64,000 nt of DNA, from IMG/VR virus record IMGVR_UViG_3300021088_000001, positions 13,272 through 77,271 of that record; one strand, given 5' to 3'. The position numbers were made by a program, and so were the translations under genes. Under the pieces are notes generated by a model, which worked only from the letters and a program-made list of their open reading frames with translations, ran no database searches and was not told the DNA's origin. This document shows, one piece after another, positions 17,862 to 56,832 of this stretch. Within the stretch, counting starts at the first letter, position 1. Every line of letters starts with the position of its first letter. The DNA is from a virus.

Positions 17862-18113
17862 TTAATAGTGCATGTTGCTTGCAACTTCAATCAAAGGCTT
17901 CTCAGCCTTCTTTACAGCCTCTTGAAGTCCACAATCAACAGCGATGGTGTTCCCATGCTGGCTAATCTTCTTAATGCTCAGCAGAGTGGTTTCTGAGCCT
18001 TCTGTGTCAGCTATAATCCCCACTTTGACATCTGAGAGGACAATTCCTTCATTACGAATGTCTCGAAGATAGTTTAGTAGATCTTGTGCTGTGGCACCTG
18101 TATGTTTAGTCAT
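17862..18113 (-). CDS. Hypothetical protein
   Basis: Tightly packed ORF in operon. Confidence 0.6.
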   Translation of the reverse strand: MTKHTGATAQDLLNYLRDIRNEGIVLSDVKVGIIADTEGSETTLLSIKKISQHGNTIAVDCGLQEAVKKAEKPLIEVASNMHY

Positions 18114-18403
18114 TATTTCGCCTCATAAACTATTGTTAGAATTTCTTTAGGCACAACTTCGTATACCTCGGGTGGGCAATAATTATAATCTGTGTGATAG
18201 CTACCACTACGTGCTTGAGATACAGCAAAATAGTTTCCATCTGAGTCTTTGTAGATGCTCTGACAGAATTCATATTTGCCATCAGAGGTATAGTTACCTT
18301 CCTCTACGCACAGCAAATCATCAGGAAGTTTATCTGGACTTACATGCCATTCACTATCATCAAATACACGATCTACAACATCTTTAACTTCATCTAGCTT
18401 CAT
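18113..18403 (-). CDS. Hypothetical acidic protein
   Basis: RSGSYHTDY motif common in small phage proteins; overlapping start/stop. Confidence 0.65.
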   Translation of the reverse strand: MKLDEVKDVVDRVFDDSEWHVSPDKLPDDLLCVEEGNYTSDGKYEFCQSIYKDSDGNYFAVSQARSGSYHTDYNYCPPEVYEVVPKEILTIVYEAK

Positions 18404-18813
18404 TTTAGCATCTCCTCAAGTGTGTCAAACTTCTCACCTTTGTCAATCACTTTCTCCACAGCATCTTCTTTGGCACGGGCAGTAAAGTAAGCTTTCAACT
18501 CTGCTGGCTTAAAATCACAAACCTTACTAGCAGCCTTAACCGCGAGTTTCAAATCCTCTTCCAATTCCTTAATCCGACGAATAATCTCTTGGCTACCCTC
18601 ATTAGAGTCCAAGAATAATTTCAAGTCAGCTTGAGAGTTGGACAAATTCTCTGATAACTCGATAGCCTTCTCGTTAGACTCTTTGAAATCTTTCAAGAGT
18701 TCTTTCTGATACAAAAGATCTCGAATCATAGGACCAATCTCTCGCGAGTATGCAAGCAATGCTTTACTGTCATTTGGCTTCTTATCTGGGGAATCAATTA
18801 CTGTTGCTGTCAT
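18400..18813 (-). CDS. Hypothetical helical protein
   Basis: GGAGG RBS; coiled-coil composition. Confidence 0.65.
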   Translation of the reverse strand: MTATVIDSPDKKPNDSKALLAYSREIGPMIRDLLYQKELLKDFKESNEKAIELSENLSNSQADLKLFLDSNEGSQEIIRRIKELEEDLKLAVKAASKVCDFKPAELKAYFTARAKEDAVEKVIDKGEKFDTLEEMLK

Positions 18814-18961
18814 TTAGTCCTCCATAATAACTACTAGATCTTGATCTATATCATTCTCAACACTATCCCAGAACTCGATATCTATATCACAGAGTTCATC
18901 ATTACTATTATACACCTGAACAATCGTTTCACCTGAGTATCCGTGAAGATGTTGTATTAAT

Positions 18962-19237
18962 TCATACACTGTCATTATTTCTCCTTAATTTGTGGCAAGC
19001 GTCTGGTAAGATGATTAAAACCTTTCCATAAAATGTCTGTGTTGCAATCTTATCCCCATCTGCATAGGGAAACCCTTGTTCATTGAGTTTACTCACAACG
19101 ACAATATCTTTGATATCATCCGCTGTATGTACATATTTCATCTCAACCCCGTTGAGAAATACTTTTGTACCGAAATACTCATCTTTCCATGACTGGAAAG
19201 CGATATCGCCTGTTGTAGTGATATTAATTTTACTCAT
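18962..19237 (-). CDS. Hypothetical protein
   Basis: GGAGG RBS; ORF in operon. Confidence 0.6.
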   Translation of the reverse strand: MSKINITTTGDIAFQSWKDEYFGTKVFLNGVEMKYVHTADDIKDIVVVSKLNEQGFPYADGDKIATQTFYGKVLIILPDACHKLRRNNDSV

Positions 19238-35116: not shown

Positions 35117-36527
35117 TATATTCCTTATTATCCTTGATCGTATAATGACGTGGCGTTTTATCTGCATGCAACTTCTGTACACTTTGTGCAATCTTAGACA
35201 ATGCTTCAGATTCTTGGTTATACCCACCACTAATTTGTCGATCATCAATAAGACTGCCCACAGAACGTGCCTCCAACAAAATCGCTACATTTGCCAATAC
35301 AGCCCCAAGATGAGGGACTCCATCAGCAGGATCATATTCTTGCCCCTCCATCCAAGCACTAAAATGTCGCTGGATTGCTGCAATATAAATAGAAGCTGGA
35401 ACAGGGGTTGCTTTGAAATTGCCGTATCCATATTTGCCGCCGTTCAACATTCCCAGAGATCCATAAGCTGTCGCAAGAGGCGACCACAGATGAAGTGGAA
35501 GCTTCGCTTGTCCAAAAGCTGTCTTAGGATTAACTGGCATTACATTTAATGCTTCTTCATAAGCATTAGATTCCTCTGGTGTCCCTAAGTATTCCTCAGC
35601 CACAAACGGAGTGAAATTCTCCTTATGCACAGCATCTCCATCCTCAATCATCTTATCCACCATCTCGTCAATTGTCAAGGAGTTATTCTGCATAGGTTGT
35701 TCTTCTACGATACGATAGGATGTGATTTCCTGTTCTCTATTTTCAAAATCAAAACTACACCAATGGAAATCTTCAGCACGATATGAAGTATCAGTGTAAA
35801 GATTTCCATTCAGATATACTTGCACCAAAGTGTCAGGTGGTACAGGACACTCACTACCCTCAGTAGCATTCCATTCAATCCAACCGTCCTTGTCAGCTTT
35901 AGATTTCTTAACCTTCTTTGGAAGCATTCCTGCTGCCTCGAATAATGCTATTTGGAAGGCTTGCTTATATTCTGTGTTCCACACAGGCTTGATAGCATTA
36001 TTCGAGAAACTCAAACTGCCATCTCGGTTAACGCTAATCGCAATAGGATAATTCTCGTTATAAAAAGTTTTTTCCTGTTTGCCAAAACCCCACTCTAATC
36101 CTAATGTAAATAAAGCCCTCTGCACCATATCACTCTCTTCTTTATTCTCAACAACAAAATAGCATCCTGCAAATCGCGCCAAGCGTTTCGCAGCTTTGTG
36201 GGCTTTGTAATCAGTTTTCTTTTTCTCTTTGAAGGCTTTGGCACACGTAAGTAAGAATCCAAGACTATATGATGTTAAATTTTTGTAACTATTACAAGTG
36301 TCTGAATCATGGAATTTCTCACTTGAATACGTCATCTTGCAATTCTCATCAGAGTAAATATAACCCTGCTTATAAATAATATTATTTTTATCTTCAGAAA
36401 GAAATTGGCGTTGTTCGCCCGGAGTGTGATCTGCCCAATAATGCCCAAGTGTAAAAAGAGCTTGTTGTGCTTGTTCACACTCTAATGGTGTGGTAAAGTA
36501 GATCTTCGTATTCTTAAACTCTGACAT
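35109..36527 (-). CDS. Multidomain protein ending in a dATP/dGTP diphosphohydrolase (DUF5664-like) domain
   Basis: NPK..G..KLPLHL..KYG..N..AIQRH..W..G..D..DGVPHL; two N-terminal QxALFTLG repeats; GWIEW..ECPV domain. Confidence 0.8.
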   Translation of the reverse strand: MSEFKNTKIYFTTPLECEQAQQALFTLGHYWADHTPGEQRQFLSEDKNNIIYKQGYIYSDENCKMTYSSEKFHDSDTCNSYKNLTSYSLGFLLTCAKAFKEKKKTDYKAHKAAKRLARFAGCYFVVENKEESDMVQRALFTLGLEWGFGKQEKTFYNENYPIAISVNRDGSLSFSNNAIKPVWNTEYKQAFQIALFEAAGMLPKKVKKSKADKDGWIEWNATEGSECPVPPDTLVQVYLNGNLYTDTSYRAEDFHWCSFDFENREQEITSYRIVEEQPMQNNSLTIDEMVDKMIEDGDAVHKENFTPFVAEEYLGTPEESNAYEEALNVMPVNPKTAFGQAKLPLHLWSPLATAYGSLGMLNGGKYGYGNFKATPVPASIYIAAIQRHFSAWMEGQEYDPADGVPHLGAVLANVAILLEARSVGSLIDDRQISGGYNQESEALSKIAQSVQKLHADKTPRHYTIKDNKEYNG

Positions 36528-36587: not shown

Positions 36588-38365
36588 GCTTTGTTTGGTT
36601 TGAATGTCTCGCTTCCAAATGACATACCTTTCAATCCAAGCCAGTCATCTTTATCATACAAGGTATGAGTAGCATTATCATAGTAGTATTGGCCAACCAT
36701 TCCTGTATTTCCAGACCAGCGACATTTAGTCATCTTCATGTAAGTTGTGTTCTTTTCTAGATCTTCATCGGCCTCTTTATTTCGAGTGAACAGGAGATTA
36801 CATGCTGCACTTTTGAATATGCTAGAACTTCCAAGAAAGTCTTCTTCATGTAAGTCTGCACCAGTGCTTCCTTGCTTACCACCTTGTGGTGTTTTTCTCG
36901 TGTGATTAATATTGATAAATGTCACCCCATGAGATTTCAAGATACCCTTCATCCATCTCTGGAACACTGCCTGCTCTTCATTACTCAATCCGTCCATCAA
37001 ATCTTGAAGAGGGTCAATGATAATCACCTTACATTCGCAAGACACAATCAATTCCATGATAAGAGATTTAATTGATTCTAATCCGCCATCCCTATCTTCA
37101 ATAAGATGCCAACGATCTGTGCCATCGGGCTGCTTCCACAACTCTTCCTCCCTCCTCAACACTTCAGGAGAGTTAAGGAACGAAAGCTTATCTTCAACAG
37201 ACTCAATAAGGTCTATCTTCCTACCGACATGGCGAGACAGTATCTTTGTGCCATATTGCCCACTATCAGATTCTAGTGAGAGTACACCAATTTTATGTGG
37301 ACTATTAAACACCCAGAAATATGCGCATTCATCTGCAATTGTACTCTTTCCTGTCCCCGAAGCACTTCCGAGATTGACAATAACTCCTAGTGGTATTCCT
37401 GCTGCCATAGCTTTCTGTACTTTGTGCATAAATGGTGGCAATGGTATTTTAGGAATTGCGGCTGCTTCACGAATCTTCTGTCCTAAACTACTACTACCCA
37501 CAATACCATCTGGACTGTAGGGTACGGCATCAAAGAAAGCTCGAAGGAATTGCTTCTCTTTACCTTTAGTAAGATACTCATTAGCATCTTTAAGGGTAAG
37601 TTTCATAACAAACATCTTATTCTTCGGCAACACATCTACAAGCTTTTTAACAGCCTCTCTGCCAGCATCGTCATTATCGTAGCACACCACAATACGCTGT
37701 GCCTGATTAAGCCATGCATATTGTAATTGTACTTGTTTAAAACTTCCAGATTCACCGATAGCGCTAGAAACTACTGGAGTGGCATCAAAATCACTTCCCT
37801 TGCCAACACGGTAATTCTCAAGCATCTGGAATGCACTCATTGCATCAATCTCACCAGCACACAACAACACATATTTAGCCTGATGGTCTTTCCATTTCCA
37901 TTGGCCAAATAATTCTGAATTCTTACCAATCTTTCCTACTGAATAGAAATCCTTAACGGGCGTAGACCGTACTTTGAAGCCTGCAGCCTTGTAATCTTGT
38001 GTGTAAGGATAATAGTGCTCAACAACTTCTGCAGTCTCTTCGTTGTATTTAAATCGGCAAGCATAAGCCTTGTATGTCTCGTCAGTAATCCCTCGTTGTC
38101 CTTTTCCTGATGTGCCAGTATACTCCTTGATTGCTTCTATTTCTTCTGGAGTGATAATTTCTTTAGTACTCACTTCGGAGTCCTGATATTCATATTTGTC
38201 AATCCCTTTCTGTTCTTTTTGTTCGTCAGATAACTCTGTATAAAAGCAGGCATGACAATAGCCTCCTAATCCTTCGCCATAATAGTGAAAGTTATTTCCA
38301 GAGGTATCACGTCCATTTTTACGACAACGTTTGCAAGGATTTTTTCCGACTATGTACTTTGTCAT
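36584..38365 (-). CDS. T7 gp4-like DNA primase-helicase
   Basis: Zn finger CxxC..CHAC; GEIDA and YDND Toprim; SGTGKST Walker A; IIDP; HTRK; KCRWSG. Confidence 0.95.
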   Translation of the reverse strand: MTKYIVGKNPCKRCRKNGRDTSGNNFHYYGEGLGGYCHACFYTELSDEQKEQKGIDKYEYQDSEVSTKEIITPEEIEAIKEYTGTSGKGQRGITDETYKAYACRFKYNEETAEVVEHYYPYTQDYKAAGFKVRSTPVKDFYSVGKIGKNSELFGQWKWKDHQAKYVLLCAGEIDAMSAFQMLENYRVGKGSDFDATPVVSSAIGESGSFKQVQLQYAWLNQAQRIVVCYDNDDAGREAVKKLVDVLPKNKMFVMKLTLKDANEYLTKGKEKQFLRAFFDAVPYSPDGIVGSSSLGQKIREAAAIPKIPLPPFMHKVQKAMAAGIPLGVIVNLGSASGTGKSTIADECAYFWVFNSPHKIGVLSLESDSGQYGTKILSRHVGRKIDLIESVEDKLSFLNSPEVLRREEELWKQPDGTDRWHLIEDRDGGLESIKSLIMELIVSCECKVIIIDPLQDLMDGLSNEEQAVFQRWMKGILKSHGVTFININHTRKTPQGGKQGSTGADLHEEDFLGSSSIFKSAACNLLFTRNKEADEDLEKNTTYMKMTKCRWSGNTGMVGQYYYDNATHTLYDKDDWLGLKGMSFGSETFKPNKA

Positions 38366-38379
38366 ACAATATATACCAT

Positions 38380-38589
38380 TCAGTCTCCCCAATTATACTC
38401 AAAACCATAATCCCACTCTTGGCATAAGTAGTCGATAGCCTCATCATCTTCAACGGAAATACCCTCTTCTTTAGTTTCTTCAGTGGGGTAAATTATTCCG
38501 CCCTTACTGACGAGAAAATTTCCAGCTAATTGCGCCCACGCTGAGCATTCGTCCCATCTACTACTTAGATACTCATTTGCTTGTGGCAT
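38380..38589 (-). CDS. Hypothetical protein
   Basis: GGAGG RBS; AIDYLCQEWDY. Confidence 0.6.
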   Translation of the reverse strand: MPQANEYLSSRWDECSAWAQLAGNFLVSKGGIIYPTEETKEEGISVEDDEAIDYLCQEWDYGFEYNWGD

Positions 38590-38606
38590 ATTTCCTCCAA
38601 AATTCG

Positions 38607-38635
38607 ATTATAACTTACCTCGTGGCACTTGTCAA
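38607..38635 (-). promoter_or_regulatory. Consensus promoter for the primase operon
   Basis: TTGACA-17-TATAAT. Confidence 0.8.
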
Positions 38636-38661
38636 TGTCAGAGTGTTAATCCTCAGTATAA

Positions 38662-39639
38662 TCACTCCATTCTGTCGTGGTTCTCTCCATCAATAAGCTT
38701 TCTATATTGAATCCAGCCTTTAAGTGGTCCACTCCACAGTTGCTCATTCCTGTCCATATGGCTAATTCCTTTTTCCCATGTGCTAGGATATGATGGAATA
38801 TTGACACAGCCTGACAACAATTTATGCAATACTCTCTTCTGACATGGATTAGCCTGATGCTCAAATGCACTAGCATGCTTCCTATCAGAGCCAACAAGCT
38901 TATCATACACTTCAATACACTTTGCCAGACTATAATCTTCGTTCCTGTAACTCACTGCAGCACAGCGTGCACAGGATACTTTAATTGCGTCATCTAGACT
39001 GATTGGCACACCATCTCCGAGATGGAATGTCTGTCCTTTATAACCTAATGACGGATTAAAGCTATCTACATATGGCAGATGCCATTCTCCAGCTTTTAGA
39101 AATTGTGGAGTAGAAGTAGCCATAGCTGCTTTCATACATCGTGCTAATTCTTCCAAACTAGGATCTGCAGCATTGTGATTACGCAGCCAAAAGAAGTTAG
39201 CCCACTCTGTGCCGCTAATCACTGTCTTCATCATCTGCCAAGGCTCTGTGAGGCGGTTAAAAATTTGCTTACTGTAGCCAGCTTCATAGAATGACCTAGA
39301 CACCTTTATAGCCTCCAGTTTAGCCTCATGCCATGCAACTACTGGCGTGCTTCCATATGTGTCGTTATACACATATGCATCATGATCTCCACCATCCCGC
39401 ATTCCCGGATTAGCTGCTCCAAATCGTACAGGCATTCCTGTAAGCTGCTTCTGCATCTTCTCGAATGGAATAGCTCTACTGGATGCAGAGTTCTTTGGTA
39501 ACATCCGATGCGTATTTAGCTCAGATAGTATTATCCGAGGATACTCAATTTCCATTGTAGTAAAACGAATTCTTGCCTCTGAAATGCTATCACAGAGTAT
39601 TGTGGCTTTGATGCCAACTCTACCTTCGATTGTGATCAA
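38662..39639 (-). CDS. thyX: Flavin-dependent thymidylate synthase-like protein
   Basis: ELNTHR..NSASSRAIP, NRLTEP, RCAAVSY, HASAFEHQA. Confidence 0.85.
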   Translation of the reverse strand: MITIEGRVGIKATILCDSISEARIRFTTMEIEYPRIILSELNTHRMLPKNSASSRAIPFEKMQKQLTGMPVRFGAANPGMRDGGDHDAYVYNDTYGSTPVVAWHEAKLEAIKVSRSFYEAGYSKQIFNRLTEPWQMMKTVISGTEWANFFWLRNHNAADPSLEELARCMKAAMATSTPQFLKAGEWHLPYVDSFNPSLGYKGQTFHLGDGVPISLDDAIKVSCARCAAVSYRNEDYSLAKCIEVYDKLVGSDRKHASAFEHQANPCQKRVLHKLLSGCVNIPSYPSTWEKGISHMDRNEQLWSGPLKGWIQYRKLIDGENHDRME

Positions 39640-47050: not shown

Positions 47051-47529
47051 ATCGCCCTCCTTAAATTAGTAGCCCTAATTATTTCATATATTTTTGTAAT
47101 TGTAAAGTGTTTTATTAGGATATATGTAATTTGTAAAATATACTTTACATTATGTAGCTTGAAATTTTAACCCCTTTCAAATTTGAACAAGAAAAGTACC
47201 CAAAAATATAATTTCATAATTCTCTTAGCCAACCCGGTACGCAAAGTCATTTTCATTTCTGGTCTACCCTATCTAGGTAGAGTGACAACATTCTTTAAAG
47301 AAAGATTACCAGAATAAAACATTTCTGGATTACAAGATTGCTTCCAGATAACACTATCGGTTTCTGGTTTCAATAGGAAATTCCTATCGTAGCTGGCGAG
47401 CATTGGCATAAGGTAACTCCCTTCGGTAGTTCTTTCATTTTGGCAATAGTGGGTTATACCTACAATTTTGTAGGTATATTATAAAGTAAGCGCGCAGGGG
47501 GTACGCTCGGTCGCTTTGCTCCGTGAAAG

Positions 47530-47666
47530 AATAATAGCTTAGCTAGTGAACTAAGTCAACATGTATTTTGTGGAAGTTTTACAACAGAAAGTCATTTAGC
47601 CATAGCTCGGCGCTCGCGAGACGAAGCCCGTATTGCAAGAGTAGGAGATAGTGCGAAGGCTGTCAA
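47530..47666 (-). promoter_or_regulatory. Two leftward sigma70 promoters
   Basis: TTGACT-17-TATTAT (about 47530-47558); TTGACA-17-TACTCT (about 47638-47666). Confidence 0.6.
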
Positions 47667-47789
47667 GCGTTATTTACTGCACAGCGAATAACATACTTTT
47701 GCATAGTAACTACATGCATGTTATCGTGCACTATATAGACTAACCTCCGGCATAAAATTAACATTTGTGAATTTGTACCGAAATACAGC

Positions 47790-47818
47790 TTGCATTCTGT
47801 CTGAAAGTGTTCTATCAT
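47790..47818 (+). promoter_or_regulatory. Rightward early promoter
   Basis: TTGCAT-17-TATCAT. Confidence 0.65.
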
Positions 47819-47824
47819 TCCCTT

Positions 47825-48080
47825 ACTCGCTCCACGGAGTGAATAGAAACAAGCAGACAAGTAAGCTAGTAAGACATGGAAGCCGTCTTTTAATTCACGT
47901 TACGGGCCTAGCTGAAAGAATGAATGTTTCGAGAGCAGTTTGTTAGCATATGCACTATCATTGAAGCTTGCATAGAGTCGTCAACAAATAGGTACTATTA
48001 TGTGAATCTTGAGAGGTGGCAACCTAAAGTTGCGAACATGATGCTGTTGCCCGATCAGCGCAGAAAACGGGTATCTTTTT
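47825..48080 (+). ncRNA. Candidate structured RNA/leader ending in an H-type pseudoknot
   Basis: Several hairpins plus TGCTG/CAGCG and TGCCCG/CGGGTA crossing stems. Confidence 0.5.
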
Positions 48081-48084
48081 CTAA

Positions 48085-50170
48085 TTGGAGTTAATTATGC
48101 AAACACACGGCTTGACTCACTATCTTGTAAAATGGGAGATTGATGTATGGGCATATGACCCAACTAGCGCGGCAATTGAGGCTCTTCAGATTCAACGTGA
48201 TGCAGACTCAAGCGCTACAGTATTTGAAGTAGTGACAGGTAACACAAGTGTCGCTGTTGATTTGGAGGGCTATGTATAAACTTCGATTCCTAAATGGCCT
48301 ATGGCGCGTGCTATCTGTCACAAGTGACAGGATTCAATTTTCTAGTGCTAGTCGAAAGACGGCAAGAGAATGGCTAGATGCTAATGAGCCATTACCAATG
48401 ACTGCGCATGATATTCTTAACAAAGAAATTGGTTATAATATTTGGAGTAAGCCTGTATGAAAATCATTTGTTCGGCGTTTAGAGAAAAATGTAATTCTAG
48501 TGCAAATGCCTTGTGCACAGCTGATTTGATTCAGTTATTCGCCGATGAATACCAAGCGAGTGTTGAACTGTGTATTGGGCATTATTGTGGGAAGAAAGAA
48601 ATTTCACTGATTATCACAAATCTAACTGAAGTTAGATTATCTTGCGCAGCCAAGGAAATTTGCAAGAAATTTCATCAAGAATATTGCTATTGCGAAGTCA
48701 ATGGAGATAGCTATATTTATTGGGCAGATAAAGAGATTGTGCAAGGGCTCGGCAAAGAATATATAGGCCCCGATAACGGTTATCAAGGCAACAGAACAGA
48801 GCTACTAGACGGCAGAATTATTTATTGCGCATAGGCTTGACAAGGAATAGTCAATAGCCTATATTGAAGCATCACAACACACTTTGAAAGAATCGAATGT
48901 TCTCACTCTTTAATAACCTAGCACCCTATGTTGTCAGGAATGACCAATTCTCTAAACAGCATCATTGCTGGACATACCAGAGTGCCCTAGAATGGCTTAA
49001 ATGCTACGATAGCACTGTTTTCGGGCAAACGTGCATACACACATCTAATGGCGAACTAATCGCCTCTAAGGAGCATTAAATGAGCTTGAGTGATGAAATC
49101 AGGTATGATGCAGAGCGTGTTAAGATTTCTACAATTGGTGTTGAAAATATGTCTGATGATGTTTTCAAAGTGCTATGTAGCTATAAGGCTCTAGGTTTAA
49201 ATGTCAAAGAATATCTGTGTGAGATGACACTAAGTCAATTGCAACTACTCATGCTCTTTGTTGCAGAAGCTGAAGAGTCATGCTAATCCACGCAATGCCA
49301 AATTTCATTGACTTCGCCTCTGCAATGCGCTATTATGCAGCTATGGGATTTACAAAGGATGATGTGCAGAATAAAATCATCCTGCGAGAAATCTACATTG
49401 GCAAGCCTTCAATGCCGAAAGACGGATTCATTACGTTAAACAAAGCTGGACAATATGAGGTGTGTTATAATGAAGCATGACAAAGATAATGACATTTCCA
49501 TTAGCATCAAGGGAAATTCTGTGCAAAGTAACTCTGGTGCAATTCAGTCAGAGCGCCGGATTGTGAAACTTAGGAAAGAGCGGGAATATACAGAAAGCCA
49601 AGGGAAGAGATGGAAACGTACAGATAAGCGTCAACAATTTAATGAGGATGAATAACATGACAATTGCAGATGTGAGAGATGCTTTTAGCGAGTGGTATTT
49701 TAAGCGATATCATGTTGCGCCAGATTTGACAGACACAAAGGATAAAAGCTTGTATGCAGCATATTTAGCTGGATGCTCATTGATTATCAATAACATTGAC
49801 AAGATTGGAGCATAGTATGATAGAATGCATTTGGCTAGTGTTTGTTATTTGCACAGCGCAATTGTTGTATGCGTTAAATATCTTGCGGACAAGTAAGGTA
49901 GGGCCATTTGAATGGGAAGCTGTGCGAGATGCATTAGCAATTTCACAAATTGCATTTCCATTGTTTATTGTTTCACTTCTTTCATTAGTGATTTATTACA
50001 TTTGGGGTTAAAATGTTGCATAAGAATTTCAAAGTGTTTGTTCCGGCTGATGTACGTGAGAAATTACATGCATTAGCTGAATTAGGAATTGATTTTATTA
50101 ATGATGCAGCCCGTGAGAAGTTGGCTAGCGCAGAGGATGTGCATGTTATCGTGAGAAATACGCCAAGGAT
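48085..50170 (+). CDS. Cluster of about 10 tiny early genes (48085-48279, 48248-48460, 48457-48834, 48897-49079, 49080-49286, 49280-49480, 49455-49655, 49796-50011 and others)
   Basis: Densely packed short ORFs with RBSs; promoter TTGACA-17-TATATT at 48837-48865. Confidence 0.55.
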
Positions 50171-51569: not shown

Positions 51570-51790
51570 ACGTCCATTGCTTTTGTGTTGTATAATTGCA
51601 ACATATGTGATTGTAACATATTAGGGTAGCGTCATATTGAAATATATTTCTTAAAATAGCTTGCACTCGGCAGGCTTTGTGTGTAAGATGAAGCTATCTA
51701 AACGGAGGACATCATGATTAAACATTCAACATACATTCAGCATGGTGACAGCGCTAAACGTGAATTTAAAATTTGTACAGGGGAAAGCAA

Positions 51791-52288
51791 ATGACTGCTA
51801 ATTTTACGCCCGAGCATTTCCAACGGGCAAGACACAATCTGTCAATGTTTGTTATTAGGCAAACTGAAAAGATGTCTAAGCAAGTAGGATTTGGATATGT
51901 AGATTGTGATGTTGCATATGATGATTATCCTTCGTTGTGCGCAGCCTTCGCAGAGTCAAAGCGTACAGGATTGCCATTGAAAGTTTGGAGCAGTGGTAGT
52001 GAGAATACGATATACACTTCGTGTGGCGCTAATTATGCATTTAGGTTTTGGCATAACTGTTTGCATGCGCAGTTTGGCATAAGCTTCGATTTAGTAGGGG
52101 AATGTGTTATAGCTGGCATGCATGTGACAGCGGTTGCAGAAGAGTTTGGTATGCACAGCCTTGAGCGGCTTATGATGGAAGCTGACACTAGACAGCAGAG
52201 TATCTTTGCATTCAAGCATAGTGACCACTTTCCTGATAACCAATTACAATTTGTGACAGATTATGTGCAAGCAAATTATTTGAAATAA
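51791..52288 (+). CDS. Conserved hypothetical early protein
   Basis: NYAFRFWH..H..F...GE motif; promoter TTGCAC-17-TAAGAT at 51661-51689. Confidence 0.65.
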   Translation: MTANFTPEHFQRARHNLSMFVIRQTEKMSKQVGFGYVDCDVAYDDYPSLCAAFAESKRTGLPLKVWSSGSENTIYTSCGANYAFRFWHNCLHAQFGISFDLVGECVIAGMHVTAVAEEFGMHSLERLMMEADTRQQSIFAFKHSDHFPDNQLQFVTDYVQANYLK

Positions 52289-54919: not shown

Positions 54920-54950
54920 AAAGCCACCTTAGCAGGTGGCTTTTTCTTTT
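54920..54950 (+). terminator. Terminator ending the early block
   Basis: AAAGCCACCT..AGGTGGCTTTTT. Confidence 0.85.
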
Positions 54951-54954
54951 GTGG

Positions 54955-55710
54955 CATCCACATTAAGCTGTCGGCAGATGTAGGCTTGTGGTGTGGTCTA
55001 GTGGCTTGTGTATGGCTGCTAGGTGGTATCTGGTGGACATGGCATTGTAGAGACTAACAGCCTGTCGAGCATTGACAACTGCTTAGCGAGCAACTGTGCT
55101 GGCCTTGTGTCATCAGCATGGTCATAGATAGCGCCTTATGCAGCGTAAAGCATCATCTATGGTGGTGTGCTTGGCAGTCTAGGCCATGCTATGGCGGATC
55201 ATTTGGCGAATGTGGAATGGCTGGCAAGAGAGCAATCACGTGACCTAGCGTTGACTCGTGGCGGGTGTTATGGTGGCGAGAAAGCATTCGGATTAGAAGG
55301 ATTGGAAAAGTACACTGTATAGTGTAGTTTTGTTAGATTCGAATTTCTATAATTTTCTCGCCACCATGTGTACGTCTGCCGACGATGTACGTCAAAAAGC
55401 TATCCACGCCAGATGCGACGCTTTGACAGCCAACCAAGCACTTGCTTGGTGCTACAGCCACCAATTGTCCACAAACGGCAGCCAGACGCCATTCTGAGCC
55501 AGTCTACTTAGGTGAGTGTATAAGTCTCAAAGGTTCATATGAGAACTATAACCCCATCTAGATGCCACTAGAACGGCTTCTACGGCGTCGCAGAGTTTGG
55601 AGCTATCTCACCATGCACCTAGCGCTAAAAACGCCTCTCGTGATATTTTGCCGCAGGATTGGACGGCTTGCGGCTGCCGTTTTCGGCGTTTAATCCCACG
55701 CTCGCTCTTG
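54955..55710. other. GC-richer non-coding region with nested inverted repeats
   Basis: No ORF of 60 aa or more; perfect 14-bp inverted repeat at 55270-55283/55354-55367 plus others. Confidence 0.7.
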
Positions 55711-55806
55711 CAACTTATTATGAAGGTAACTTTTAAATTTTATTTTTAAAATAAATCTTGACAAAAAGCACTATTCGTGTTAAGCTATAATTTTATATGG
55801 AAATAT

Positions 55807-56727
55807 ATGAATATAGGAGATATTTACCCAAGTAATTTATGGGGTGATATGATTGTTAGGAAGTATAAGAATAGCAGGCAAGTTACGATAGAATTTTTAG
55901 AGTCCGGCTATAAATATACCGCTCAAAAAAATAATATTATGCAAGGCCAGATAAGAGATGCACGAAGACAAGCGGATGAAGTTAAAGTTAAGGAACTTGC
56001 TAAAAAATTAACTAAAAGGGTATTCTTATATACTGTTAAAGCTTTAAGTAGTTTTGATAAGATGCACAAAAAACAACTAAGTTTTTTGAAATCTGAAACT
56101 ATTAGAGAAGAGAAATTGGAGCATCTATGGAATGTACTCTCAAAAATATACACTCATAAAGAGTACGGTGAGTACAGGGTTATTGATAAGATATCAAGTA
56201 ACAGGTATAAAATAAGATTCTTAGAGAGTGGAAATGAATACACACACACACTACCTCATTTACAAAGCAAACGGGTAACAGATATCTCAAGATACTCACA
56301 AGAAGAACTTAAAAGGAGACAGAGTCAATATGCCGCTACAAATTACTTGCAGAATAGGGAGCATAGACTAGAGCACGCCAAAGCTTATCAGAAAGCCAAC
56401 CCTGAGAAAGCTAGACTAAATAACCATCGAAGACGTGCTAAGCGATGTAACGCTGATGGCTCATACACAAAAGCTGAAGTTGACCTAATCTTTGAAAATC
56501 AAAATGGCCTGTGTACTAGCTGCAAAAAACAACTCACCCCTGAAAATAAACACCTTGACCACATTATGCCAATAGCCCTTGGTGGATCTAATTACGCCAA
56601 TAATCTCCAATGGCTCTGCCAATACTGCAACAATAGCAAGAGCGCAAAACACCCAGACGAATGGGCTGCATATATACAAACTCCTATGTTCAAGAAGCGG
56701 CTAGAGATAATGAGAAATCCCCTTTGA
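55807..56727 (+). CDS. HNH endonuclease with N-terminal DNA-binding repeats
   Basis: CTSC..HLDHIMP..GGSN..NLQWLC..CN; two IxFLESG repeats; promoter TTGACA-17-TAAGCT at 55758. Confidence 0.88.
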   Translation: MNIGDIYPSNLWGDMIVRKYKNSRQVTIEFLESGYKYTAQKNNIMQGQIRDARRQADEVKVKELAKKLTKRVFLYTVKALSSFDKMHKKQLSFLKSETIREEKLEHLWNVLSKIYTHKEYGEYRVIDKISSNRYKIRFLESGNEYTHTLPHLQSKRVTDISRYSQEELKRRQSQYAATNYLQNREHRLEHAKAYQKANPEKARLNNHRRRAKRCNADGSYTKAEVDLIFENQNGLCTSCKKQLTPENKHLDHIMPIALGGSNYANNLQWLCQYCNNSKSAKHPDEWAAYIQTPMFKKRLEIMRNPL

Positions 56728-56804: not shown

Positions 56805-56832
56805 AAAAAGCCCCGTACTTTGTACGGGGCCT
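56805..56832 (-). terminator. Terminator at convergence
   Basis: AAAAAGCCCCGTAC..GTACGGGGC. Confidence 0.8.

Follow-up and report, generated by a model that had tools for sequence, protein, structure and literature searches.

An untranslated, terminator-bounded stretch beside the early genes of an environmental phage: a candidate DNA-level boundary rather than a large structured RNA

Introduction

What is the role, if any, of some 750 nt of phage DNA that lie between two converging sets of genes and carry no recognizable gene of their own? The stretch that raises this question spans positions 54955-55710 of the window, a term that we use for the whole 64,000 nt of DNA analyzed here (bases 13272-77271 of a 77,271-bp viral contig from IMG/VR). 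A reading made from the bare sequence had described it as a non-coding region folded into nested long-range helices around a central stem. It had proposed either a large phage non-coding RNA (ncRNA) or an element acting at the level of DNA, for instance a packaging end or an injection-stop signal like that of phage T5. Here, we weigh these proposals, and a few others, by a computational analysis of the stretch and of the corresponding regions in related phages.

The phage and the setting of the stretch

The two ends of the contig overlap by 127 bp, which gives a circular assembly of 77,144 bp. This overlap is uninformative on the real ends of the genome because its length is that of the assembler k-mer, an assembly artefact that is also found in the related IMG/VR contig G007. 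The genome is that of a tailed phage and encodes a tape-measure protein, a T7-type primase-helicase, an RNA ligase, and three tRNAs. Its cultured kin are distant: TerL is ~39% identical to its best matches, which are in Pseudomonas phages of the Pakpunavirus, Nankokuvirus, and Otagovirus types, and the major capsid protein shares 49% identity with its counterpart in Limnohabitans phage DC31.

The stretch occupies the junction between a + strand block of small early (host-takeover) genes and a small operon that converges on it from the - strand. The early block includes anti-restriction-type genes and has the stretch at its distal end, where the stretch shares with an HNH endonuclease gene the interval between two terminators (54920-54943 and 56810-56830). 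Its G+C content is ~0.49, versus 0.41 for the genome. One of the early genes (51773-52288 of the window) encodes a 171-aa protein; several T7-like podoviruses have a homologue of it within the first 0.7-6 kb of their genomes (at 682-1116 in Bordetella phage BB8, for instance), where it is an end-proximal early gene. The features of the region are as follows.

54920-54943, + strand: intrinsic terminator closing the + early operon, a 10-pair stem with 5 G-C followed by TTTTTCTTTTG
54944-55239: left arm, G+T-rich on the + strand, GC skew ~+0.23
55191-55322, + strand: candidate 43-codon ORF, proposed from its codon usage, ending inside the apical hairpin
55240-55410, both strands: central hairpin, or cruciform-capable inverted repeat, of ~165 bases, from its z-score and pair probabilities of ~1
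55270-55283: 5' arm, ATGGTGGCGAGAAA, of a perfect 14-bp inverted repeat
55306-55331: apical A4-stem-T4 mini-hairpin, with the GC skew peak (55336) within a few bases
55354-55367: 3' arm of the 14-bp inverted repeat, separated from the 5' arm by an AT-rich spacer of 70 nt
55433-55450: 8-bp inverted repeat with a 2-nt spacer, ACCAAGCA / TGCTTGGT, a hairpin in the folds of both strands
55516-55719, + strand: block homologous to the gaps of related phages, with a DnaA-box-like word GTGTATAA, the palindrome CATCTAGATG (55555-55564), GCTATCT, and a ..CGCCTC..GATATTTT motif, then a GCCG/CGGC mini-stem followed by GTTTAAT
55714-55768: AT-rich palindromic tract, kept in G007 and G006
55777-56727, + strand: free-standing HNH endonuclease gene, G+C 0.31 (HNH_5, HNH; PHROG HNH/endonuclease VII)
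56810-56830, - strand: terminator of the converging small-gene operon, a 9-pair stem rich in G+C, with ACAACAAAAA before it on the + strand

Folding of the stretch

The complementary segments quoted in the sequence-only reading were all found in place. Five pairs of them (54997/55564, 55013/55477, 55033/55466, 55062/55422, and 55127/55399) had been taken as nested long-range helices, but arm alignment and pair probabilities put them at the level of chance. For the former, the central hairpin was removed and the left arm was aligned to the reverse complement of the right arm, with arm-preserving shuffles for comparison. The local alignment scored 19 (19.1 +/- 2.4 in the shuffles) and the semi-global one 14.5 (15.3 +/- 3.6), and when wobble pairs were allowed the z-scores were 0.4 (+) and 1.3 (-). 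In the + strand ensemble, the pair probabilities of the proposed helices H1 to H5 were, respectively, 0.05, 0.42, 0.003, ~0.2, and 0, so that three of the five stood at 0.05 or less, and the structure with all the proposed helices enforced lies 21.4 kcal/mol above the minimum free energy. A 13-nt pair said to cross this nest (54970/55371) has a probability of 0 because its 3' partner is taken by the stem of the hairpin; a comparable 12/13 pair turned up in 7.5% of the shuffles.

The stretch as a whole does fold better than its dinucleotide shuffles (z -2.8 for the + strand and -3.2 for the - strand, 100 shuffles), but the signal comes almost wholly from the central hairpin: without 55253-55400, the z-scores are -0.96 (+) and -2.55 (-). 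When the stretch was scanned with 160-nt sliding windows, the sole outlier was 55240-55399 and the others scattered around zero. Short inverted repeats are in mild excess, repeated words or iterons are as numerous as in shuffles, and the left arm is free of repeats and of significant structure, whether local or long-range. The nested fold is at chance level, and the central hairpin alone is significant.

This hairpin reaches -63.3 kcal/mol on the + strand (z -5.4) and -47.8 kcal/mol on the - strand (z -4.3, 200 shuffles in both cases). A few G-U pairs, only three or four in number, make the + strand form more stable by 15 kcal/mol. On its 5' side ~34 consecutive bases are paired on the + strand, several of them in G-U pairs, and the bulges are in the 3' side. 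At its heart is the perfect 14-bp stem that had been described from the sequence, which is confirmed together with the structure that it encloses, a small apical hairpin. A 14-mer inverted repeat of this kind arose in 1 of 300 shuffles (~0.3%), and it is one of 11 perfect inverted repeats of at least 11 bp in the genome (loops up to 150). The longest of the genome lies elsewhere (35937-36006 of the window), a perfect 15-bp repeat whose arms enclose a 40-nt loop, within a long - strand ORF, and perfect inverted repeats of at least 12 bp with long loops are ~8 times commoner genome-wide than expected.

No T-run follows the long stem on either strand, and the terminator scan omits the hairpin, which is not an intrinsic terminator. 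The exact 14-bp repeat pattern has zero matches in IMG/VR and in 185,579 prokaryote genomes; since this search came back empty, we excluded a multicopy MITE-like element as well as a host-derived one. For an analysis of covariation in the hairpin there are no close relatives: the flanking proteins are at best 51% identical to those of other phages, and the best major capsid identity, 72%, is on short contigs. One of the relatives, G006, has in the same syntenic gap a perfect 20-bp inverted repeat with a spacer of 85 nt, starting with ATATGGTGGC. It shares TATGGTGGC / GCCACCAT with the 14-bp repeat studied here, and TATGGTGGC is how it begins.

Coding content and transcription

The description of the stretch as non-coding holds in that no ORF exceeds 66 codons from stop to stop and nothing in it matches Pfam, PHROGs, or Rfam, but it has to be qualified for the candidate 43-codon ORF, whose codon usage is gene-like. 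This ORF scores 0.35 bits per codon, a level reached by ~1% of shadow ORFs, and with ~11 ORFs put to this test the score could be due to chance. No ribosome-binding site is visible, and no homologue of its product was found in the protein collection, where the sole match is the same protein on another assembly of this phage. The flanking 65-aa ORF is an orphan too. In each half of the stretch, the composition mimics that of the coding strand of genes in the corresponding orientation, and the commonest stop is TAG. Amber recoding was considered and rejected, as reading through TAG opens no frame and the coding signal is confined to the 43-aa ORF. A pseudogene origin found no support in the stop-to-stop pieces, which have no match in PHROGs and Pfam. 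A DNA similarity search against sequenced phages found nothing, and the stretch has no match in phage, plasmid-free, and genome collections. At the gathering threshold, Rfam recovers only the three tRNAs, elsewhere in the window, and with E-values up to 10 its covariance models give only chance-level matches, which fall on the flanking terminator or on short segments of the stretch.

Just upstream, the strong terminator noticed in the sequence-only reading is confirmed at 54920-54943 (local fold z -3.9); its stem is also possible on the - strand, with a poor T-tail. At the other side, ACAACAAAAA forms a T-tract on the - strand, and the terminator at 56810-56830 is the right limit of the untranslated zone. 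The promoter scan found no promoter facing into the stretch above the background of chance matches; at the level of 9-10 of 12 positions it returned 69 matches versus 52 +/- 6 in shuffles, a modest excess. Given these near-shuffle numbers, a - strand candidate at 55764-55737 was not counted as evidence. The cumulative GC skew of the gap peaks at 55336, i.e., the skew changes sign at the apex of the hairpin, in a genome where GC skew tracks gene orientation.

The HNH gene is single-copy in the genome, and no ORF of its size occurs at the syntenic place in DC31 and G002; we read it as a probable mobile insertion. Six nt upstream of an ATG (55798) that is in frame with the HNH ORF there is a consensus TATAAT (window 55786-55800), with no good -35 hexamer at standard spacing, and the HNH mRNA might be leaderless.

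A conserved block in related phages

The gene order of this phage is collinear with that of DC31 and of the IMG/VR contigs G002 (TerL 61%), G006, and G007, and in each of them this junction is occupied by an ORF-poor gap of roughly 0.6-1.6 kb. Against G007, blastn recovers a 25-nt piece of the AT-rich palindromic tract (92% identity, E 2.5e-5), and the tract could be aligned in G006, G007, and G010. The gaps of G002, G006, G007, and G010 have in common a core of ~300 nt, from which we built a sequence profile, leaving the phage under study out. The best match of this profile in the window, over both strands, is 55516-55719 on the + strand, with 15.3 bits and an E-value of 2.7e-4 (the next one has 0.15), where the E-values are rough and the match is missed with default filters. 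The match is collinear and at the syntenic place, and its score is modest. The profile also matches G001 (44 bits) and G003 (32 bits) at the syntenic place.

The seven-way alignment of this block conserves words rather than a fold: inverted DnaA-box-like words (TGTATAA/TTATACACA), small palindromes, GATATTT, a short G+C stem, and the AT-rich palindrome. Covariation in related phages would have spoken for a structured RNA; RNAalifold on the seven homologous sequences, which cover the conserved right-hand block only, gave -0.5 (+) and -3.8 (-) kcal/mol and no favorable covariation, and no relatives of the hairpin could be aligned. The right-hand 200 nt are kept in phages that do not share the small genes next to them. 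Upstream of the core, the gaps of the relatives contain arrays of palindromes and inverted repeats. Iteron-like repeats, typical of these gaps, are absent here, as is the relatives' palindrome TTTAAACGCGTTT.

The recurrence of CTAG in the stretch, pointed out in the earlier reading, is real (7 occurrences versus ~2.8 expected, P ~0.02). The same word is 3-6 times enriched in large non-coding gaps of the lineage, including the gap just upstream of terL, with CTAG-rich gaps at 18074-19001 in G002 (L049), 47532-48399 in G007 (L061:7532-8399), and 38201-38780 in G006 (L055). No longer consensus was found around CTAG in the gaps of the lineage.

DnaA boxes and genome ends in related phages

The region has no perfect DnaA box and a single 8-of-9 match (55465), the window-wide number of such matches being that expected by chance. 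In related phages, clusters of 4-7 perfect DnaA boxes (TTATCCACA), in both orientations, occur in an ORF-poor gap (L002:7157-7946, L005:6678-7456, L056:4827-5619, L061:6623-7925, L030:20233-20350, and L024:12100-12514). DC31 has five boxes inside 118 nt, and our window has no such cluster. In G006 and G007, the clusters of perfect boxes are in the gap that heads the early block, and a module of DnaA boxes plus palindromes stands on either side of the block, ~6.5 kb apart. The L024 cluster is also placed at the head of the early block. Three linear contigs (those of L024 and L004, and G008) end ~12-725 nt from DnaA boxes.

Among cultured relatives, phiPsa374 has a terminal repeat of 526 bp in an ORF-poor gap where blocks of small genes converge. 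PaP1 has a terminal redundancy of 1190 bp (PMC3652863), and its repeat is likewise placed in an ORF-poor gap between converging small-gene blocks. For PAK_P3, the terminus is predicted to lie in a gap of ~920 bp after a promoter-rich early block, with same-strand genes beyond, and gp113, located at this terminus, is the only predicted gene that is not transcribed (PMC4933390). The stretch corresponds to the terminal repeat or predicted terminus of these three phages in position only: their terminal regions gave no sequence or profile match to this region, and the small early proteins have no homology to those at the ends of phiPsa374, PaP1, PAK_P3, and DC31. The early regions of these phages turn over rapidly.

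A possible DNA-level boundary as the best explanation

The features point to a DNA element that would be read by proteins rather than to a large RNA. The explanation that we favor, tentatively, is that the stretch is an untranslated boundary or terminus region acting at the level of DNA, with an anatomy similar to that of the T5 injection-stop signal (iss), and that it marks a genome end or the boundary of a terminal repeat. Such a region would have three parts. The first would be a unit that varies between lineages, made of inverted repeat, 70-nt spacer, and inverted repeat, and able to extrude as a long hairpin. The second would be the block of ~200 bp conserved in related phages, with its DnaA-box-like words and small palindromes, and the third the AT-rich palindrome. 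Proteins would read the sites of the stretch on double-stranded DNA, and terminase would cut in the region when packaging concatemers. The physical genome end held there may carry a short terminal repeat, as in phiPsa374 and PaP1; alternatively, as in T5, it may mark the inner limit of a long terminal repeat that includes the early block. What the analysis shows is the anatomy, a zone insulated by a terminator on either side, a block homologous to the gaps that relatives have at the syntenic place, and no conserved RNA fold; that proteins bind here and that a genome end is present we infer.

Several results argue for this boundary. The hairpin is prominent on both strands, as expected of a DNA inverted repeat, while long-range pairing is at chance and the conserved blocks consist of words and palindromes without covariation. 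Terminators stand on both sides, with no above-chance promoter facing in. The synteny with DC31, G002, G006, and G007 is joined by the profile homology (E 2.7e-4), and the gaps of the relatives contain arrays of palindromes and inverted repeats, one of which shares TATGGTGGC / GCCACCAT with the repeat found here. TerL has its best matches among phages of the Pakpunavirus, Nankokuvirus, and Otagovirus types, and phiPsa374, PaP1, and PAK_P3 have their terminal repeats or predicted terminus at such gaps. Finally, the GC skew of the gap switches sign exactly at the hairpin apex.

Other results weigh against it. The argument from the three cultured phages is positional, the right-hand block scores modestly for homology (15.3 bits), and there are no iteron-like repeats and no perfect DnaA boxes here, unlike in the gaps of the relatives. 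The break of three linear contigs near DnaA clusters hints that genome ends could lie at the head of the early block instead. Moreover, a pure DNA element needs no stabilization of the + strand by G-U pairs (15 kcal/mol). Of the two proposals made in the earlier reading, that of a DNA-level element, which may be a packaging end or an injection stop, fits the evidence better than the ncRNA.

Alternative explanations

One alternative is that the stretch is a boundary for injection in two steps, as in T5: the early block would enter the cell first, and a host protein would keep hold of the region until the products of early genes set it free. We consider this unlikely. Its attraction is that the region lies at the distal end of an early block with anti-restriction-type genes and that its anatomy parallels the untranslated repeat regions of T5, where an HNH gene also lies between repeat regions. 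In the relatives, a module of DnaA boxes plus palindromes flanks the early block at a distance of ~6.5 kb, with clusters of perfect boxes heading the block in G006 and G007. However, these clusters are at the opposite end of the block, and the region itself has no perfect DnaA box and one 8-of-9 match, the chance rate. No A1/A2-like genes were identified. To our knowledge, two-step injection is known only in T5-like phages. The host protein proposed for T5 is DnaA (bioRxiv 10.1101/866236), and this model is just a proposal for T5 itself. A broader version extends the idea to the freshwater Pakpunavirus-related lineage as a whole (this contig, G001-G003, G006, G007, G010, and DC31). These phages would bracket their early block with T5-iss-like untranslated regions made of DnaA boxes and palindromes, and the block would enter first, possibly as a terminal repeat, its transfer or processing being gated there. 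The studied region would then be the distal gate, with the DnaA boxes replaced by an inverted repeat of its own. We regard this scenario as quite unlikely.

The stretch could also harbor a local RNA element, in which a 165-nt hairpin in a + strand transcript serves, for example, as an RNase III site or as a 3' stabilizer of the mRNA of the 43-aa ORF, the rest being spacer. The greater stability of the hairpin on the + strand, by 15 kcal/mol through G-U pairs, would be accounted for, as would the gene-like codon usage of the ORF at 55191-55322, which has its stop in the hairpin apex and was predicted by a gene caller on another assembly too. Yet the asymmetry rests on three or four G-U pairs, the stem has no U-tract behind it, and the ORF has neither a ribosome-binding site nor homologues. 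Furthermore, the strong terminator 250 nt upstream is not followed by any predicted + strand promoter ahead of the ORF. We find such an element improbable.

It is similarly doubtful that the stretch has no function at all, being the remains of decayed + and - strand genes at a convergent junction that tolerates junk, with a hairpin that arose by chance or from a past insertion. Decay would be in line with the coding-like composition of the two halves, with the residual coding signal in one frame, and with a sequence unmatched in collections, in early regions that turn over fast. Against it, the right-hand 200 nt are conserved although the flanking small genes are not, the pieces of reading frame match no protein family, the G+C content is above that of the phage's genes, and a perfect 14-bp repeat is expected in only ~0.3% of shuffles.

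A replication origin or terminus, where the palindromes and the AT-rich tract would form a zone of initiator binding and unwinding or where forks would converge, is very unlikely. The AT-rich palindrome does adjoin DnaA-box-like words, and the GC skew changes sign within the gap, but skew follows gene orientation in this genome and its cumulative global minimum, at 47358, is in another gap. The DnaA clusters of G006 and G007 are in the gap heading the early block, the counterpart of 47051-47662 here, and the region itself has no iterons or DnaA-box cluster. The gap at 47051-47662, which is ORF-free and divergent, between the replication genes and the early block, contains position 47358 and is a candidate origin or end in its own right.

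Finally, a single structured ncRNA of ~750 nt, with nested long-range helices and a pseudoknot, would agree with the whole-stretch z-scores (-2.8 and -3.2), the z-score of -2.55 of the hairpin-less - strand, and the mild surplus of short inverted repeats, but it is highly improbable and largely refuted by computation, with pairs at chance in arm-preserving shuffles, low helix probabilities at a cost of 21 kcal/mol, no Rfam match at E 10, no conserved fold or covariation in the conserved part, and no convincing promoter.

Implications

The analysis removes a false lead, as the stretch is not a giant ornate phage RNA. What takes its place is a conserved untranslated region in poorly known environmental phages, positioned like the genome ends of their cultured relatives. 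If the DNA-level boundary that we favor does hold a genome end or a long repeat, it would fix the true genome map of these phages, and it would show whether a staged entry of DNA like that of T5 exists outside the T5 group. The profile built from the relatives marks the same boundary in related metagenomic contigs.

Comparison with known systems

The large RNAs GOLLD and ROOL resemble the stretch in size (0.6-0.8 kb), in being enriched in G+C relative to the phage genome, and in their lack of ORFs. Unlike them, the stretch has no covariance-model match at E 10, no multi-helix architecture beyond chance, and no conserved structure. The termini of phiPsa374, PaP1, and PAK_P3 resemble it in that they, too, involve a large ORF-poor gap downstream of promoter-rich small early genes. 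Phages of this group are also the best cultured matches of both TerL and the major capsid protein of our phage. In PAK_P3 the terminus is silent in transcription, and here terminators enclose the gap. The gaps of these three phages contain short direct or inverted repeats of words, whereas the one studied here has a single long hairpin and no repeated word.

In the left terminal repeat of T5, the untranslated repeat regions contain units of inverted repeat, spacer, and inverted repeat, palindromes, DnaA boxes, and an HNH insertion (bioRxiv 10.1101/866236). The spacer is 70 nt here versus a fixed 52 bp in T5, and the two phages differ in that their gene content is unrelated and that consensus DnaA boxes are absent here. 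The T5 iss trait of paired DnaA boxes in the repeat-spacer-repeat unit is absent as well, and membership of the T5-type class fails on this feature because our phage lacks such boxes. The two nevertheless have in common a large untranslated zone distal to the first-expressed block of genes, a unit of inverted repeat, spacer, and inverted repeat, palindromes, and an adjacent HNH insertion, and in the relatives of our phage DnaA boxes flank the early block on both sides, which extends the comparison with the T5 iss.
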